From Scenedesmus sp. PABB004 (taxonomy: Eukaryota), in NCBI GenBank assembly GCA_014905635.1, contig JABVCE010000011.1, positions 1 to 64,000 on the forward strand: a DNA stretch of 64,000 nt, in the 5' to 3' direction. The notes under the pieces were generated by a model. It searched no databases. It saw only the letters and a program-made list of their open reading frames with translations, and was not told where the DNA came from. This document shows positions 1 through 34,248 of the stretch, one piece after another (within the stretch, counting starts at the first letter, position 1; each line of letters begins with the position of its first letter). Made by a program: the position numbers and the translations under genes.

Positions 1-153
1 GCGCCGCCGCGGCGCGCGGGCCGGCACGCGGCGGCCGCCGCAGCCCGCGCAGCAGCCGCGCGCCCCTCGCCTCCTGACGCCCCGCTCGCTCCCGCCCCGC
101 CCCGCCCCCTTCACGCCACCCCCCCCCTCCCCCACCCCGGCCTTGGCCCGCAG

Positions 154-25991: not shown

Positions 25992-28023
25992 TCACGCCGC
26001 CTCCGCCGCGGCGCCGCTCGGCTCGGCGCCGCTCCCGCTCTGCTCGGCGCCGCCGCTCAGGTCAAAGTTGAGCGTGCGCAGCGCCGCGCCGGCCTCGGCG
26101 TCCCAGCCCGGCCCGCCCGCGAGCGGGCGCAGCGCGCGCAGCGGGGCGAGGAACTCGGCCGCGCTGCTCCCCCGCACCGCGCCGCACACGCCCGACAGCA
26201 GCGGCTCCGGCAGCGCGGCGAGCTGCATGCGGAAGCTGCCGTAGATCTCCCAGGCCCACGCCCGCGCCTCGGCCTGGTCGTCCGGCACCGGCGGCAGCAC
26301 CTCCTCCACGTCCTGCAGCACCTCCGCCGGCACGCTCAGCTGCAGCACGGCCTCGAGCAGCCCCCGCTTCGCGCCCGCGCCGGGCGCGCCCATCGACGAC
26401 GCGTCGAGCGCCGGCGCGGCGAGCACGGGGCTCGCGGGGCCGAGGCCGTCCGGGCCGACCATGTCGCGCCACGCGCCGCTGTCCCACAGCTCCTGCAGGC
26501 CTGCGCGGCGGCGCGGCGGCGCGCGGCAGGGGGTGGGCGCGCGCTCGCCTCGGCCCGGCGGCGCGCGCACGCGCAGCGCGGCGCGGCGCCCACCTGGCAG
26601 GTGCGCCGAGCCCACCACGAGCGCGACCGCCGGCGCCGGCGCGCCCGGCAGCTGCATCAGGCCCCGGCAGCACTGGTCCACCACGCCCAGCATCACGCCC
26701 TCGCGCTCCTGCGCGGCGGGCGGGCGCCGGCGCTCGTGCTCGCGCGGGCGCCGGTGCCTGCTGCCCGCGGCCGCGCGCCGCCCACGCCGCCGCCGCGACC
26801 CTCTGCCTTTCTCCGGCCCTCCCCTGCCGCCTCTCACCCGCATCATGATCCCCCACACACACGTCTGACTCAGCGCCGCCTGGTAGTCAGCAGCGACCGC
26901 CGCCGCGGCCGCCGCCGCGTCGCCGCCGCCGTCCGCGGCCGCCGCGGCGAGGTAGCCCGAGTACAGCGCGGCCGCCTCGGCGCCAAACGCGGCGTCCAGG
27001 TCCGCCAGGCTCGGGATGGCAAACAGGCGCCTGCGGCCGGCCGCCGCGGCGACGGCGGCGCGGTTGTCGGCCTGCGGCCCCGCGGCCGCAGGCGCCGCGC
27101 CGCGCCGCCGCTCACTTGTAGGTTGTGGCCTTTGGCCGGTCGCCAAAGAGCAGCTGGCTGCCGGTCGCAAACGCGGCGACGTACGCGAGCTGCTCGCCGT
27201 TGAACTGCCCCGCCGCCTGCTGCCAGATGCCGCCCGGCGCCATCGCCGACTCGCCCTGCTCCTGGATCGCCGCCGCGACCTGGCAGAAGACGCGCAGGAA
27301 CATGCCCGCCGAGCCTGCGCACGCCAAACGACGGCACGGGCGGGCCGGCGGGCAGGTGGGCAGGTGCGCGGCGTGGCGCGGCGCGGCGCGGGGCGCGGCG
27401 CGGCAGGGAGCGCTCCCCCGGCGCCGCCCCGCGCACCTTGGACCTGGTCGCGGCAGGTCACGCCGCGCCCCGGCTCCGCGCCATGCTCCGGCGTGGCGGC
27501 CGTCTCGACGACCACCGCCGCGGGGCGCTGCGCGAGGATCCACTCGCCTGCGCGGCGGCGGGCGCGGCGGCGCGTGGGCGGCCGCGCGGCGCGGCCGCCG
27601 CGGCTGCCGCCGCGCAGGCTGCCGGCGCGCCTGCCCTCCCGCGCTGTCGCGTGCCGCTGCGTTGCCGCGCGGCGCACCGATGTGGGGCTGGCGGTCGAGG
27701 TGCTCCACGCCAAACACGCACACACACACGCCCGCCGGGTGCGACAGCACGAGGTCCGGCCCGCCCTCGGCCGGCGACAGCTGCGCCTGAGGTGCCGGCT
27801 GCTCCTGCGGCGGCGCCGCCGCCACCGCCACGGCACGCCTCTGGCCGGCGGCGGCGGCGGGCCAGGCTGGCGCGGCGCCGCTGCTGCCGCCGCCGGCGCG
27901 CGCCGCCGCCGGCTGCGCCGAAAACGCAGCTGCTCTGTCGCGGCGCGTGGAGGGAGTCCCGGCCAGCCGACGGGCTGCGCGAGGGGCTGCAATGCGTCCG
28001 CTGGGCGGCGAGAGGGCCTGCAT
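25992..28023 (-). CDS. TraB/GumN-domain protein, probably organelle-targeted
   Basis: Exons 28023-27678, 27547-27437, 27314-27116, 27030-26838, 26708-26594, 26500-25992. Motifs VFGVEH, RPAAVVVE, GEQLAYVAA, LLFGDRPK.TTYKR, MRERE, VALVVGSAHLPGL..LW. Confidence 0.85.
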
Positions 28024-28462
28024 GGCGCGCAGACGGCGTGCAGCACCGCGAGGGGGCCGCTGGACGCCGCGGCAGCGATGCTGAACGGACTCACCCACGC
28101 CGGCGCGCGTCGGGGGAAGCGGGTGCGACGCGCCGGAGGCCCAGCGCTGCGCCCCGGCCGCGTTGCGACCGCTCTGCTGCCGCGTGGGCGTCAGATGGAC
28201 CTCACGGCGTCCGCGGCCGACCACACCCCCAGCGCAGCGGCAGGACGTGCGCGTGCCCGCTGGCGCACGGGCAGCAGCAGTTGATGGCCTGAGCGGCAGC
28301 GCGCCCGCCGCCCGCTGCACGCGCCGCCGCCGGCAGCCGCCGCAGCGGGCTGACGAGGTAGGAGAAAGCGCCAGCTCACGAGCCCCCGGCCAGGCGCGTC
28401 CCGCCCGCGCGTGAGCAGGCGGCAGCAGCAGCAGCTGCAGCAGCGGGGGCGCCCGCGGCGAC

Positions 28463-30825
28463 ATGGGGCGGAGCCGCAGCCGCAGCCGCGAGCGGCGGCG
28501 GCGCAGCCGCAGCCGCAGCCGCGACCGCGACCGCGACCGGCGGCGGAGCAGCCGGAGCCGCAGTCGTGAGCGCAGCCGGCGCGACCGCGACGGCAGCGGC
28601 CGGCGCGAGGGCGGCAGCCGGCGCAGCCGCAGCCGCGAGCGCAGCGGCAGGCGCGAGCGCAGCCGCAGCCGTGACCGCGACCGTGACCGCCGGCGCAGCC
28701 GCGAGCGCAAGCGCAGCAGGAGCGGCGAGCGCGGCGCGCCGGCCGCGCCCGCACCCGCGCCCGCACCCGCGGCCGCGCCGCCGCCCACTGGCGGCGGCGA
28801 CGACGAGCTGGAGGCCAAGCGCCGGCGGCTGGAGGCCTGGAAGGCCAAGCAGCAGGCGCTCAAGGCAGCGGCGCCGCCGGCCGGCGCCGCAGCCAAGGCG
28901 GGCGGCGAGGAGGAGGACGGGCACATCTCGTCGGTGCCGTGGGACGGCAAGCCCAGCGGCGGCGGCGGCGGCGGCGCCGCGCCCGTGCGGCCGCCGCCCG
29001 GCGGCGACCCCAAGGCCGTCTTCTGGTCGCCGTACAGCGACGACGAGGACGACGAGGCCGCCAAGGCGGCCGCCACGGCCAAGGCGGCCGCGGGTCCGGG
29101 CGCGCTGCCGGCCAAGGTGGTCGCGCTGAAGGCCAAGGACGCGGCGGAGGACGTCGCCGCCGCGCTCAAGGCGGCCGCGGGCGGCGACGAGCCGGACCCG
29201 CTCGACGCCTTTATGAGCGCTGAGGTGTGGCAGGGCTCCGGAGGGGAGGGTTTGGGAGAGGAGGGTTTAGGAGAGAGGGCAGCCGGCGGAGGGAGGGCAG
29301 CGCAGCGGGCGCGCGGCCGAGCGCCGCCCCTCAGCCGCGCACCGCCGCGCCGCGCGCAGGTGATGCCGGAGGTCGCGGCGCGGCAGGCCGAGGCGGCGCG
29401 CGCGGCCGAGGCGGCGCGGCTCGAGGCGGCCAAGGCCCTCGCGGCGGGGAAGAAGCTGCCGAGCGAGCGCGTGCTGGAGGAGGACAGCGACGAGGAGCCG
29501 GAGCCAGACCTGGAGATCACGGTGCGGTGTGCGGCCCGCGCACGCGGGCGCGGGCCGCGCGCGGGGCCGCGTGCGGCGCCGGCCGCTGAGCTGAGCGGCG
29601 CGCCCGGCCTCGCCGCCCGCCGCCGCGGCGCGCGGCCGCGCAGATCCCCACCAACCGCGTCAAGCTGCTCGTCGGCCCCGGCGGCGCGACGATCAAGGAG
29701 ATCCAGCGCAAGTGCAAGTGAGCCGCGCAGACGGGCCGGCGCGGGCGCGCTCGCGGCTCAGCTCAGCGCGGCGCGCGCCGCCCCGCCGCCGCCGCCGCAG
29801 CCGCCACGTGCAGCGCCGCCGCGCCCGCGCCGCCGCCCGCCCGCCGCTCTCCAACTCCCGCCGCCTCCCGCCTCCTGCCGCGCCGCCGTGCACCAGGGCG
29901 CGCATCCAGATCAAGAAGGAGGAGGAGGAGCTCAACCGGGCGTGGGGCAGCGGGCCGATCATCCGCCCGGCGGCGCAGCCCCACTCCGGCCCGCGCGCGC
30001 CAAAGGGCACCGCGCTGCTCACCGGCCCCGCCGCGCCGCAGCCGCTCGTGGCGGTGGTCGGCAAGGGGGACAAGGACAAGGAGGACGGCGGCGACGGCGA
30101 CGGCGACGGCGGCGAGGGCGGCGAGGGCGGCGAGGGTGGGCAGCAGGCGCAGCAGCGGCTGACGACGCTGCAGATCTACGGCGACAGCGGCGCGGTCGAA
30201 AAGGCGGTGGCCATGATCGAGGAGGCGGTGGCGAACAAGGAGCAGAAGGCCAAGCAGCGCGCGAGCCAGTACGAGCGCAAGCGCGAGCAGCGCCGCCGCG
30301 ACCGGTGCGTGCATCTGTGTCTGTGCGCGCGCGCGCGTGCGCCGTCGCCGCCGCCGCCGCCACCGCCGGGCGCGCGGCTGCCGCGGCCGCCGCGCGGCGC
30401 CGACCCCGCGGCCTGACCCCCAACCCCGCAGGCAGCTGTACCACCTGCGCCACGCCAAGGACTATGAGGAGCTGGGGCTGCCCATGGGCGCGAGCAAGAC
30501 CGACATCAAGAAGGCCTACAAGTGAGAGCCCCCACGGCCCACACACCGCCCGCTCGCCGCTCCGCTCGCCCCGCGCCCTCGCTCGACCGCGCCTCACGCA
30601 CGCGCGCGCCGCTCTCACCCCACGCCGCCGCCCTGCGCCCCCTATGCCCCGCGCCGCAGGAAGCTGGCGGTGCAGTGGCACCCCGACAAGCACCCGAACA
30701 ACGCCGAGGAGGCCAAGGCGCGCTTCCAGGCCATTGGTGCCGCCTACAACCGGCTCATGTCCAGCGACGAGGACGAGAGCATCGCGCAGCTCGAGGCCAA
30801 GGCTGGCAAGGCCAAGGCGCCGTGA
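28463..30825 (+). CDS. RS-rich / DPLD-motif / KH-domain / C-terminal DnaJ J-domain protein
   Basis: Exons 28463-29224, 29360-29521, 29644-29717, 29897-30304, 30432-30521, 30660-30825. RS repeats; DPLDAFM; KH IPTNRVKLLVGPGGATIKEIQ..ARIQI..IYGDSGAVEKAVAMI; J-domain YEELGL..IKKAYKKLAVQWHPDK..AKARFQAIGAAY. Confidence 0.9.
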
Positions 30826-30938: not shown

Positions 30939-32499
30939 TCACGCCAGGCGCGGGCCGCCGCCCCTACGCTCGCCGCCGCGCGCGCCGTCGAGCTCGCCCG
31001 CCGCGCGGCGCCGGGCCTCGCCCGCGCGGCGCTCCTGCACCGCGGCCTCGTACTGCGCGAGGCCGGGCAGCTCGTCCCGCCCCACGCGGCCGCGTATGAT
31101 CGCGCTCGCCCAGCGCCGCTCCGTCTGCTCGCACGCGTCGCGCAGGTCGCGGCCGCTGAAGCCGCGCGTGGCCGCCGCGAGCGCCGCGCGCTCGTTGGCC
31201 GACAGGTGCGCGGCGTACTGGCCCAGTATGGCCTCGCGGCAGGCCGCGTCGGGCAGGCCAAAGTGGATGGACAGGTCAAACCTATAGGTCACGCGGCCAG
31301 CGGCGGTCGGCGCCGGTCAGCGACCGTCAGCGGTGGCGGCGGGCGCGTGGTTTGCAGCACGCGTCAGCGGGGCGCGCGGCAGGGTGGGCAGGGGGCGGGC
31401 AGGGTGCGCGGCCCGCAGCCCGCGGCGCGCGCGCGGCGCGCGCCTGCTGAGCAGCGCGGCGTCGAGGTCGTCGCGCCGGTTGGTCGCGCCGATGACGACG
31501 CTGCGCCCCCCGCCGCCGCCGCCGCCGCCGCTGAGCTGCCCGCCGCCGCCGGGTTGCCCGCCGATGGGCTGCCCGCCGCCGCCGCCGCCGCTGCCGAGGG
31601 TGTTGTCGAAGCCATCAATCTCACGCAGCAGCACGCCCAGAAGCCGCCTGCGCGGCGCGGCGCGGCGCGGTGCGGCGCGGCACGCGCGGCGCGGCGCGTC
31701 GGCTCCCGCCCCTGCGGCGTGCAGCTCACCCGCAGCCCGCACGCGCCGCGGCCCGCGGCGGCGCGCGCGCCTGCTGGCCTCGTGCATGTCCCCCCGGTCG
31801 CGGCTGGTCGCGAGGGAGTCGAGCTCGTCCAGGAAGAGGATAGCCCCGCCGAGCGACGCGCACGCGGCAAAGACCTTGGCCAGGTTCTGCTCCGACTCCC
31901 CATACCACTTGCTCACGATGCCCTGCAGGCGCGCGGGGAGAGGGGGTGCGGGTGTGTGGAGGGGCGCGGCGGGCGCGTGGAGGGGCGCGGCGGGGGTGTG
32001 GAGAGGCGTGGCGGGTACGAAGCGAGCGGCAGCGGGTGCGGGGCGAGCGGCGGCGGGCGCGTGGCGAGGGGCGGTGGGTGCGGGGCGAGGGGCGGTGGGT
32101 GCGGGGCGGGCGCGTGGAGTGGCGCGGCGTGGCGCGCACCTCGAGCGGCACGTACACGAGCGGCACCGCGGCGCGCCGCGCGAGCAGCCGCGCGCTGCTG
32201 GTCTTGCCCGTGCCTGCGCCGCGCGCGGAGGGGCGGCGGGCGCGCGGCGCGGCGTCCGCCCGCGGCGCCCGCGCGGCGGCGGCCGGTGCCGCCCGCTGCA
32301 GCGCGCGCCTGGGGGGCCCTCGAAGAGCACCGCGCGGGGGCGGCTGCTGCCGCCCTGCTGCGCCCTGTCCTTGCGCGTGCGCGCCGCGATGGAGTCGAAC
32401 ACCTCTGGGTGCTTGAGCGGCAGCAGCAGGCAGTCCTCCAGCGCCGCCTTTTGCGACTCGTACCCCGCCAGGACGCCCCAGCCATCGCCGCCGCTGTCA

Positions 32500-32533
<34 letters not shown>

Positions 32534-34248
32534 GCAGGGCCTCGCCGCGCGCGAGCGCCTCGGGCGGTGGCAGGTACACCTGCGCGCCCAGCGCCGCGAG
32601 CTGCGCCACCGCCGCGCGCGCCGCGGGCTGCTGCCACGGCAGCAGCGGCGGCTCGGCGCGCGGCGTGTCCGGGCTGGCGGCGCGGCCGCCGGCCTGGCCG
32701 CCGGGCTTGGCGGCGCCCTGCGGCTGCTCCTGGCCCTGCCCCTGCGCCTGCCGCGCCGCCTCCTCTTCCAACTGCCGCAGCCACGCCTCCATGTCCGGCG
32801 GCGACAGCTCGCGCAGCTGCTGCTCCATCTGCTGCCGAAGCTGCGCAGACAGCCCGCCGCCGAGGTCGCCCAGGAAGGAGCGCCACCTGCGGCCGCGCGG
32901 CAACGGCGCGGCGGCGGCAGCGGCAGCGGCGCTGAGCGTGCCGCCCCGTCGACGCCGGCGGGGGCCACCCGCCCAGCGCCCGGCCGCGCGGCGCCGCCGC
33001 CGCCGCCCAGCAGCGCCCAGCAGCGCCACTCGCCGGCCGACAAAATCGTCGAGCTCCGCGCCGCCGTCAGGGCCCCACCCCGCCGCGAAGCCCTGCTCCA
33101 GGTCGCCCAGCAGCCCCTGCGCCGCCTGCTCCAGGGCGCGCCCGAGCGGGCCCAGCGCGCCGGGGCCGTCCAGCCCCGTGCCGCCGGGGTCGCCCCAGGC
33201 GCCGGCCCAGGGGCCCCCGGCGACGAGGGCCCGCCCGGCGCGGCGCGGCTGGCGACGGTGACGAGGCGGGACAGCAGTGCCAGCTCGTCCTCGGCCAGCG
33301 GTCCCCGCTTGGCCAGCGTCAGGACGCCGCCCGGCTGGCCGCCGCCGCTGTCCTCCTCGTGCGGCGACGCCGGCCGCAGCGGCAGCACGACCTGCACGCT
33401 CAGCTGCTCCCGCGCGCCGATGCCGCGGGCGGCGGGCGCGCCGGGCGGCGCGGCGGCGCGCGCGCGAGAGAGCTCAAAGCTGACGACCTTGGTCGTGCCC
33501 AGCAGCCGGCTGCCCTGCGTCTGCGTGCTCGACGCGGCGCGGCGCGCGAGGCCGTCCAGGCCGGCGTCCACGGTGGAGAGCAGCGCCGCCACGTCGGTGC
33601 CGGGCGCGAGCGGTATGCTGACGCTCAGCAGGCCGTCCGAGAGCTCCGCCGTCGGCGGGGCCGGCGCCGCGCCGGCGCCGGCGCCGCGCGCGCCGCCGGC
33701 GGTGGCGGCCGCCGCCGCGCGGTCGGCATCGAGCTGCGCCTCCTCAAACGCCGCGGCCAGCGTGCGCCGCACGGCCGCCAGCGCCGCGGCCGAGCCCTGC
33801 GCGCGGCGCGGCGCGGCGCAGCGCGGGCTCGCGCATGCGCAGCCACCCGGGAGGTGGGGAGCGCGCCAGCGCACCGCCGCGGGCGCACGGCCCCTGGTGC
33901 GCTCACCTCGTCGTGCGCGTCCGCGGCCGCGGGGCGCGCGGCAGCGGCGGCGGCGGCGAGCGCGGCGGCGAAGCCCGTCCAGCTCGCCCAGGCTGCGCGT
34001 TCCCTTCCACTCCTTCCCGCGCTGGCGGTGGCGGCAGGCCGGGGCGCGCCGGCGCCCGCGCTGCTGCGAGCGGGCCGGCCCGCTGCTGCCGCTGCCGCTG
34101 CCGCTGCCGCGCCGGGGCTGCTGCTGAATGAGCGCGCCAGCGCGCCAGTCGCAGCGCCTGCTCCCTGCAGGGTCTGGGCGCCGGGGGCGCCCAGGCCGCG
34201 CCGCGAGGCGGCGGCGGCGGCGAGCAGCGCTGCCCGGCCCCGCGCCAT
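30939..34248 (-). CDS. AAA+ ATPase (single classical AAA module), probably mitochondrial
   Basis: Exons 34248-33907, 33796-33034 (frameshift ~33216), 32886-32309, 32213-32140, 31922-31771, 31647-31444, 31281-30939. Walker A GPPGTGKT, SKWYGESE, Walker B ILFLDELD, IGATNR..LDAALLSRFD, GFSGRDL. Mitochondrial-type N-terminus (ARSFSS). Confidence 0.93.

Follow-up and report, generated by a model that had tools for sequence, protein, structure and literature searches.

Introduction

The protein described here is the product of a six-exon gene on the forward strand of a 64,000-nucleotide stretch of Scenedesmus sp. PABB004 DNA (positions 1 to 64,000 of contig JABVCE010000011.1, assembly GCA_014905635.1; this whole stretch is hereafter the window), and the closest described systems are spliceosomal helicases that bind SF3B1 and J-domain proteins linked to splicing. 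As in the Prp5/DDX46 (RH42) helicases, a region rich in Arg-Ser or Arg-Asp (RS/RD) is followed by an R..(R/K)(L/I/V).AW(K/Q) segment and by a DPLDAFM..EV.PEV helix, in the same order. By contrast, the window protein is without the DEAD/Helicase_C core and the KH_12 domain of Prp5; it has instead a KH_1 domain and a C-terminal J-domain, and the acidic loop of PRP5 is mostly missing in its family.

Human PRP5 is reported to be anchored on SF3B1 by two helices that sit on HEAT repeats 10-12 and 3-5, with alpha1 (residues 152-178) directing R163, K164, R166 and R171 to acidic residues of HEAT 10-12, and alpha2 (225-243), which carries the DPLD motif, placing D226 and D229 on K656 and L228, Y231, M232 and V235 on I610, F647 and V651; an acidic loop (195-209) lies in the SF3B1 RNA path and is called there the most notable PRP5-SF3B1 contact (10.1101/2022.11.07.515429). 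The same SF3B1 patch is reported to be bound by helix alpha-3 of DDX42, through D114/E117 and residues 116/119/120/123; DDX42 and DDX46 are described as mutually exclusive on SF3b, and DDX42, named a 'chaperone of the RNA path', has to depart for DDX46 to bind (Yang et al. 2023, PMC9935549). In the numbering of chain 8hk1_E, D114, E117, F119, M120 and V123 are residues of the DDX42 sequence DPLEAFMAEV. For yeast Prp5, the SR-like N-terminus is reported to contact U1 snRNP (small nuclear ribonucleoprotein), and DPLD to contact SF3b, with DPLD mutants altering branch-site fidelity (Tang et al. 2016, PMC5238730), and pre-A complexes are described as still having the DPLD-bearing N-terminal region on the HEAT repeats of Hsh155 (Zhang et al. 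2021, PMC8357632). A first-pass annotation of the window, made from the DNA letters, had likewise noted that DPLD of Prp5 is implicated in the U2 snRNP/SF3b interaction, in agreement with these reports.

J-proteins give Hsp70 its specificity, and to our knowledge the chaperone route to the spliceosome is poorly understood. Class-C spliceosomal J-proteins include DNAJC17 and yeast Cwc23; DNAJC17 consists of a J-domain and one RNA-binding domain, which in this group is an RNA recognition motif (RRM), the J-domain being N-terminal. DNAJC8 has a J-domain near its N-terminus, then a coiled coil, is not known to have a KH domain, RS domain or DPLD, and is set apart from the window protein by this description. 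In published listings the human J-protein SPF31/DNAJC8 appears as U2-related and Hsp75 appears among the 17S U2 proteins; a J-protein beside an Hsp70-family protein among U2 snRNP-related proteins is a precedent for recruitment of Hsp70 to U2.

Results

A single gene and a conserved family

Joining of the six exons gives a 553-residue protein without internal stop, and all five introns are GT..AG (three-frame translation and DNA). The G+C content is ~75-83% across the region, with long open stretches in every frame, so that open reading frame (ORF) length is meaningless and the gene had to be assembled exon by exon. The exon junctions match contiguous sequence of orthologous proteins and transcripts, the orthologs reading across them as ...DPLDAFMSAEVMPEV..., as ...DLEI.IPT.RVKLLVGPGGATIK.IQ.K.KARIQI.KEEEELNRA... 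and as ...RRDRQLYHLRHA.DYEELGLPMGASK.DIKKAYKKLAVQWHPDKHPNN. Exon 1 starts at the first in-frame ATG after a stop; orthologs likewise begin MGRSRSRS or MPRSRSRS. Transcript-derived ORFs, including the TRINITY record P0013 and an MMETSP-labelled 'type:complete' record from Bathycoccus, hold DPLD, KH and J in one frame, i.e. orthologous transcripts are single ORFs and the single gene of the first-pass annotation stands. That annotation had also listed an RS domain, KRRRLEAWK, DPLDAFM, an acidic patch, a KH domain with a long variable-loop insertion, a coiled coil and a J-domain, all of which are present, its positions for DPLDAFM (29195-29215) and HPD (30679-30687) being exact.

With Pfam run on single exons, KH_1 is matched on exon 3 (E 7.6e-6, 26 bits, above the cut-off of 21.5) and DnaJ on exon 6 (E 2.5e-8, 34.3 bits, above the cut-off of 27.8), the latter match continuing on exon 5. 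DEAD or Helicase_C has no match on any of the six exons, as expected from the earlier view that DEAD-box motifs are lacking.

A word-indexed search with the N-terminal half of the protein returned four relatives, including a Scenedesmus protein labelled 'DnaJ-domain-containing' and the transcript-derived ORF P0001. When P0001, without J-domain, was used as phmmer query against 1.84 billion cluster representatives, the number of matches was 656 at E<=1e-3, falling to 83 at E<=1e-10 and to 11 at E<=1e-30; those ranked lower than the family members are ordinary multi-KH proteins. The family members (hereafter the KH-J family) all unite DPLDA(F/Y)M, a GxxG KH loop and HPD, with no DEAD box in a helicase context, and Pfam DnaJ and KH_1 are present in all 35 aligned members, whose listed families include neither DEAD nor Helicase_C. 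The domain combination is conserved throughout the family and is thus not a matter of chance. Invariant columns in the alignments of 18 and 35 sequences are D, L, D, A and M of DPLDAFM, P and E of PEV, two KH glycines, and H, P and D; the DPLD motif, being equally invariant, is as constrained as the catalytic HPD.

Relationship to the N-terminus of green-lineage Prp5

The N-terminus had been read in the first-pass annotation as the Prp5/DDX46 signature, and profile comparisons bear this out. A DPLD profile, A2, made from 20 family sequences (52 columns), was compared with 5.8 billion proteins and gave 68 matches at E<=10, comprising 44 KH and DnaJ proteins, four KH-only fragments, five proteins without a Pfam family, and 15 helicases with DEAD, Helicase_C and KH_12. 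Six of these helicases are significant at database scale: a Micractinium 'DEAD-box ATP-dependent RNA helicase 42' (E 1.7e-10), P0210 (E 2.1e-9), P0215 (E 3.2e-7), Coccomyxa RH42 (E 8.4e-6), a 'Chlat1' record, which we take to be Chlorokybus (E 1e-5), and P0219 (E 8.2e-5). Fungal PRP5 and a nematode homolog reach E values of only 1.4-9.8. The N-termini of the green-lineage helicases are RS/RD-rich and continue with EKRRKRIQAWQEQ (the EKRRKRIQAWQ helix), then W(T/S)LE plus an acidic run, then DPLDAFMAAEV(L/M)PEV, often twice. The order of elements is that of the window protein, and the two are near-identical over 15 residues (DPLDAFM.AEV(L/M)PEV), which accounts for the preference of A2 for helicases of the green lineage.

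Alignment of the DPLD stretch of the family with that of the helicases by hhalign gave a probability of 98.4% (E 4.2e-15). For alpha1 segments chosen by regular expression the probability was 94.7% with a score of 29.2, which none of 20 column shuffles reached (maximum 19.2). Since selection by regular expression biases this test, the comparison was rerun without motif selection in 26 family members and 12 helicases, starting at the first residue and stopping three residues short of DPLD; the best local alignment then pairs DELEAKRRRLEAWKAKQQA with AEMEKRRKRIQAWQEQRRK, i.e. the KRRRLEAWK helix with the EKRRKRIQAWQ helix, at E 4.2e-5 with a probability of only 69.6%. At the level of sequence, these comparisons show the DPLD helix to be homologous to that in the N-terminus of green-lineage Prp5; the collinear alpha1 helix appears to be so as well, and the RS region is probably homologous too. 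RS/RD-rich N-termini recur in relatives from much less GC-rich genomes (P0154, P0156, P0020, P0033, P0021 and P0010), so the RS domain is not merely a GC-rich microsatellite.

The resemblance does not extend to the KH domain. In the helicases KH_12 (PF23469) is matched at E 2.6e-10 to 7e-13; P0154 and P0173 have no KH_12 match at E<=0.1, and the 25 listed families (of 34) of the 35 relatives do not include KH_12, whereas KH_1 is matched by every relative. An origin of the family as Prp5 minus its helicase core, with its own KH domain kept, was therefore rejected, as was the identification of the KH domain with the C-terminal KH-like domain of DDX46 in the first-pass annotation. The presence of KH_1 instead of KH_12 implies that the N-terminal module was joined to an unrelated KH domain and J-domain.

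DDX42 is alike in that its DPLEAFMAEV helix is followed by acidic helices, as the DPLD helix of the window protein is followed by a conserved acidic patch. DDX42 differs in that it is a helicase and bears an acidic N-plug, and its sequence similarity to the family is not significant (E 0.54).

As to the motif in the helicases themselves, DPLDAFM occurs twice, 32-57 residues apart, in the green Prp5/RH42 proteins P0204, P0210 and P0217, and the first copy is degenerate in P0218 and P0219; the fungal and nematode Prp5 homologs shown have a single DPLD copy.

The KH domain and the J-domain

Fold results were obtained with the Tetraselmis ortholog P0154, not with the window's own protein. The AlphaFold2 model of P0154 (35-sequence alignment) has a mean predicted local distance difference test (pLDDT) value of 72, the RS region and linkers being disordered. 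A confident helix is present at the alpha1 site (residues 94-118, block pLDDT up to 92), and a second, residues 179-215, starts exactly at DPLD (pLDDT 82-87). These are followed by a beta-alpha-alpha-beta, loop, beta-alpha KH arrangement (DSSP: E237-242, H243-250, H252-264, E267-270, loop, E298-304, H307-), from the alpha' helix of which a 45-residue helix leads to a four-helix J-domain (pLDDT above 90). Foldseek against the PDB matched the KH domain to those of FUBP1, Nova-2, PCBP2 and hnRNP K, with a template modelling score to target of ~0.8, and the J-domain to PFA0660w, DNAJB8, HSJ1a and Ydj1. The modelled fold is that of a normal type-I KH domain, which presumably binds RNA.

In having a type-I KH domain with GxxG, with FUBP1, Nova-2 and PCBP2 as closest structures, the protein resembles the KH splicing factors SF1/BBP, KHDC4, FUBP/KHSRP and Nova. 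A KHDC4/BBP-like KH profile is touched by 33 of the 35 relatives (best E 2.3e-5), P0154 scoring 20 bits and P0173 13.2 bits, below the 30-bit cut-off. Unlike those factors, the window protein has a single KH domain with a long, length-variable beta2-beta' loop and no QUA2/STAR region, joined to a J-domain. The distance from GxxG to HPD is 190 residues here versus 134-147 in shorter relatives, i.e. the long KH variable loop of the window protein is real.

The J-domain, with its predicted four-helix fold and HPD, can be assigned to class C (type III), since the 25 listed families of the relatives include neither DnaJ_C nor the DnaJ zinc-finger, domains whose absence, with that of a G/F region, sets class C apart from classes A and B. 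No RRM is found on the exons or among those 25 families, and by this measure the RS domain would make the protein SR-related at most, not an SR protein. In contrast to the DNAJC17/Cwc23 group, the J-domain of the window protein is C-terminal and an RRM is not listed among its relatives.

Naming and range of the family

The family is uncharacterised and widely conserved. Its members carry source labels such as 'hypothetical', 'predicted protein' or 'J domain-containing protein', or automatic names only, and none of the sources assigns it a characterised name, DNAJC or other. Neither a protein uniting KH and J-domains nor a J-protein bearing DPLD was found described in the full-text literature, in which subscription journals are thinly covered and which was partly judged by titles and abstracts. 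The protein thus appears to be new as a candidate J-domain co-chaperone whose targeting module can be interpreted and is taken over from a spliceosomal helicase.

The named genera are Scenedesmus, Tetraselmis, Trebouxia, Myrmecia, Parachlorella, Micractinium, Bathycoccus and Micromonas, all eight of which we take to be Chlorophyta, spanning Mamiellophyceae, Chlorodendrophyceae, Trebouxiophyceae and Chlorophyceae; this range rests on few named sequences and may be wider. Two KH_1 and DnaJ clusters in the protein atlas (94 and 118 members) are both described as 'commonest Chlorophyta'.

Two relatives have unusual gene models. In Micractinium conductrix the KH-J gene lies inside a merged 1395-residue model, P0172, named 'Histone deacetylase 14' (KH, DnaJ, TPR, Hist_deacetyl); P0172 and the RH42 helicase P0204 of the same species are on contigs of equal size (393,986 nt), so both genes may share one contig. 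P0018, a eukprot gene model of 636 residues, has the KH GxxG segment VKLMVGAGGLKIGEIQKKSK four times in tandem, which is either a real duplication or an assembly or model artefact.

The locus

The features of the gene are collected in Table 1. The first-pass annotation had set the protein in a genome with relaxed splice donors, a connection that finds no footing at this gene, where all five donors are GTG(A/C/T)G; the introns are all 122-179 nt. Intron 1 is in frame and stop-free, and its retention would add 45 residues to the DPLD helix without truncation; since an open frame is expected by chance at ~80% G+C, this may be meaningless.

Downstream, a gene on the reverse strand (31317-33473) that runs towards the KH-J gene's 3' end encodes an AAA ATPase domain (Pfam AAA, E 1.5e-13), the match having been made on a stop-to-stop frame still holding intron sequence. 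Upstream, at 27016-28926, open frames of 422 residues (forward strand) and 604 residues (reverse strand) are Arg/Ala/Pro-rich and have no Pfam match at E<=1e-3; most likely they are non-coding and kept open by base composition. No helicase gene was found in the 64-kb window by tblastn with three RH42 helicases.

Table 1. Positions of the KH-J gene and of its parts in the window
Feature	Residues	Position (nt)	Strand	Remarks
Whole gene, six exons	1-553	28463-30825	+	1662 nt, 553 codons plus TGA (stop 30823-30825), exons joined by coordinates
Exon 1	1-254	28463-29224	+	Start codon, RS domain, alpha1-like helix, W/acidic element, first part of DPLD helix
RS domain	1-90	28463-28732	+	R or S at 66 of 90 residues
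KRRRLEAWK	119-127	28817-28843	+	Core of putative counterpart of helix alpha1 in Prp5; consensus in the family, R..(K/R)L.AW(K/R)
FWSPYSDDEDDE	187-198	29021-29056	+	W-plus-acidic element resembling the helicase W(T/S)L(E/D)-acidic stretch; weak, not family-wide
DPLDAFMSAE/VMPEV, DPLDAFMSAEVMPEV	245-259	29195-29374, split by intron 1	+	Start of long helix; DPLDAFM at 29195-29215
Intron 1		29225-29359	+	135 nt, phase 0, directly after DPLDAFMSAE, inside putative SF3B1-binding helix
Exon 2	255-308	29360-29521	+	Remaining DPLD helix/coiled coil (alanine-rich helix), conserved acidic patch
Acidic patch EEDSDEEPEPD	294-304	29477-29509	+	Conserved in family
KH domain	about 305-444	exons 3-4	+	One type-I KH
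Exon 3		29644-29717	+	KH beta1-alpha1-GPGG-alpha2; Pfam KH_1 E 7.6e-6
GPGG loop		29674-29685	+	KH GxxG
Exon 4		29897-30304	+	KH beta2, variable loop, KH beta'-alpha', charged helix towards J-domain
KH variable loop		29919-30155	+	~80 residues, between beta2 and beta'
KH beta'-alpha'		30156-30230	+	
Exon 5		30432-30521	+	End of charged helix, J-domain helices I-II; DnaJ profile positions 3-21
Exon 6		30660-30825	+	End of J-domain helix II, HPD, helices III-IV, acidic tail, stop; DnaJ E 2.5e-8
HPD	506-508	30679-30687	+	J-domain tripeptide between helices II and III

Discussion

A candidate Hsp70 co-chaperone with a Prp5-like putative SF3B1 anchor

By a slender balance of judgement, the window protein is probably an SF3b/U2-docking, RNA-binding class-C Hsp70 co-chaperone, which would use the SF3B1-anchoring module of Prp5 without the helicase and would compete with Prp5. 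From the domain content we infer the following course. The RS domain would take the protein to the nuclear splicing compartment, where, judging from homology and the published structures, the R..L.AWK helix and the DPLDAFM..EV.PEV helix would settle on the convex face of the HEAT solenoid of SF3B1. The KH domain would hold about four nucleotides of single-stranded RNA, which could be pre-mRNA near the branch site or polypyrimidine tract, or U2 snRNA. The J-domain, with its intact HPD, would trigger ATP hydrolysis by a nuclear-cytosolic Hsp70 on the particle so bound, and Hsp70 may then remodel, release or protect SF3b/U2 snRNP. Competition with Prp5 is proposed on the ground that one SF3B1 surface serves both DDX42 and DDX46, each excluding the other; by competing, the protein could also modulate U2 assembly and branch-site proofreading.

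Mapping of the known contacts is consistent with this proposal. Every side chain of D-P-L-D-x-(F/Y)-M predicted from the helicases to contact SF3B1 is present and invariant in the KH-J family. In our own mapping, the spacing of basic residues in PRP5 alpha1 (i, i+1, i+3 and i+8) fits K119, R120, R122 and K127 of the window protein.

By contrast, several observations weigh against the SF3b-docking reading. The likeness to Prp5 is limited to two short helices, with ~19 and ~30 aligned columns. The acidic loop of PRP5 was tried as a family feature and rejected: a W-plus-acidic element is present in 4 of 17 family members (the window protein included) versus 7 of 10 helicases, and the alignment is not significant (probability 0.07%). 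The valine of the hydrophobic stripe is at +10 in the family, as in the green helicases, versus +9 in human PRP5/DDX42. Pairwise and structure-database searches recover little of the relationship: phmmer of P0001 against the PDB gave generic KH domains only, with no DDX46, DDX42 or Prp5 at E<=10; the 'longer' search with the P0154 N-terminus (residues 95-235) gave one match at E<=10 among 1137 candidates, the merged Micractinium model and no helicase; and in BLASTP the alignment between P0154 and Micractinium RH42 covered only 13 residues (E 0.003). The five matches of A2 in the PDB at E<=10 are PknG, by chance (E 0.28-0.86), and human DDX42 (E 0.54-0.56), human DDX46 not being among them. In yeast, moreover, Prp5 with DPLD changed to APLD or AAAA is reported to recover more Hsh155 in pull-downs in vitro, but less of it in vivo (Tang et al. 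2016, PMC5238730), opposite effects which imply that DPLD is not a simple anchor.

Alternative explanations

It may be that the protein is a general nuclear chaperone of messenger ribonucleoproteins (mRNPs), or an SR-related one, in which the RS and KH domains bring Hsp70 to pre-mRNPs or speckles, with DPLD and alpha1 binding a partner other than SF3B1 or being inherited baggage. An RS domain with one canonical KH_1 domain is indeed a generic RNA-processing make-up, SF3B1 binding is argued from homology, and the yeast DPLD data, as reported, are ambiguous. However, DPLD is conserved more strongly than any other non-catalytic element in the family, and the A2 matches that bear a Pfam family belong only to the KH-J family and Prp5-type helicases (63 of 68, the other five being fragments without a family), a restriction which argues for the same partner; a general role of this kind is accordingly considered unlikely.

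A second alternative retains SF3B1 as the partner and dispenses with a chaperone function: the protein could be a decoy of Prp5, an ATPase-less competitor for the Prp5/DDX42 site that tunes U2 maturation or branch-site fidelity, the J-domain serving only its own turnover or release. Its two helices correspond, as far as sequence shows, to those by which Prp5 contacts SF3B1, and the reported competition of DDX42 and DDX46, mutually exclusive on one surface, provides a precedent. Green-lineage Prp5 also retains its own DPLD, often in two copies, so Prp5 and the KH-J protein coexist. A mere decoy, however, needs neither a J-domain nor a KH domain, and both HPD (invariant in 35 sequences) and the KH domain (35 of 35) are as conserved as DPLD, while the acidic loop with which PRP5 blocks the RNA path is mostly absent from the family. 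This explanation is regarded as rather more doubtful still than the preceding one.

Independent origin of DPLDAFM as a convergent short linear motif, such that nothing could be transferred from Prp5, would be compatible with the shortness of the motifs, the 13 residues aligned by pairwise BLAST and the lack of significance in the PDB search. It is improbable given that the family has the 15-residue DPLDAFM.AEV(L/M)PEV in common specifically with green-lineage helicases (E to 1.7e-10, versus 1.4-9.8 for fungal and animal Prp5), that a second, upstream helix matches in the same order and that both families start RS/RD-rich. That two neighbouring genes or a chimeric model were taken as one is hardly credible, for although the Micractinium 'Histone deacetylase 14' is clearly a merged prediction and ~80% GC opens every frame, there are six collinear exons with GT-AG introns, independent transcript ORFs and the same architecture in 35 of 35 relatives.

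Implications

In the preferred reading, that of an SF3b/U2-docking co-chaperone, the targeting part of the protein is recognisable and structurally interpretable, since it would consist of the two helices that anchor Prp5 on SF3B1, the second of which is also used by DDX42. Cancer mutations in the same region of SF3B1 alter branch-site choice. The prediction is cheap to test, with obvious DPLD and HPD point mutants and a family that is present in tractable picoalgae. If docking is true, the family would amount to an experiment of nature in which the Prp5 anchor proves portable as a module, and would provide a direct handle on Hsp70 action at the U2 snRNP.

It is possible, and advanced here only tentatively, that in chlorophytes the SF3B1 anchor sites of DDX42 and Prp5/DDX46 are also occupied by a third protein, which is not a helicase and in which the N-terminal module of Prp5 has been copied onto a KH domain and a J-domain so as to load Hsp70 directly on SF3b/U2. 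Chaperone availability, e.g. in heat stress, might then tune U2 maturation or branch-site choice, with Hsp70, not a DEAD-box ATPase, powering the step. Should docking hold, the KH-J proteins would add to splicing in these algae a chlorophyte-wide regulator that competes with Prp5.

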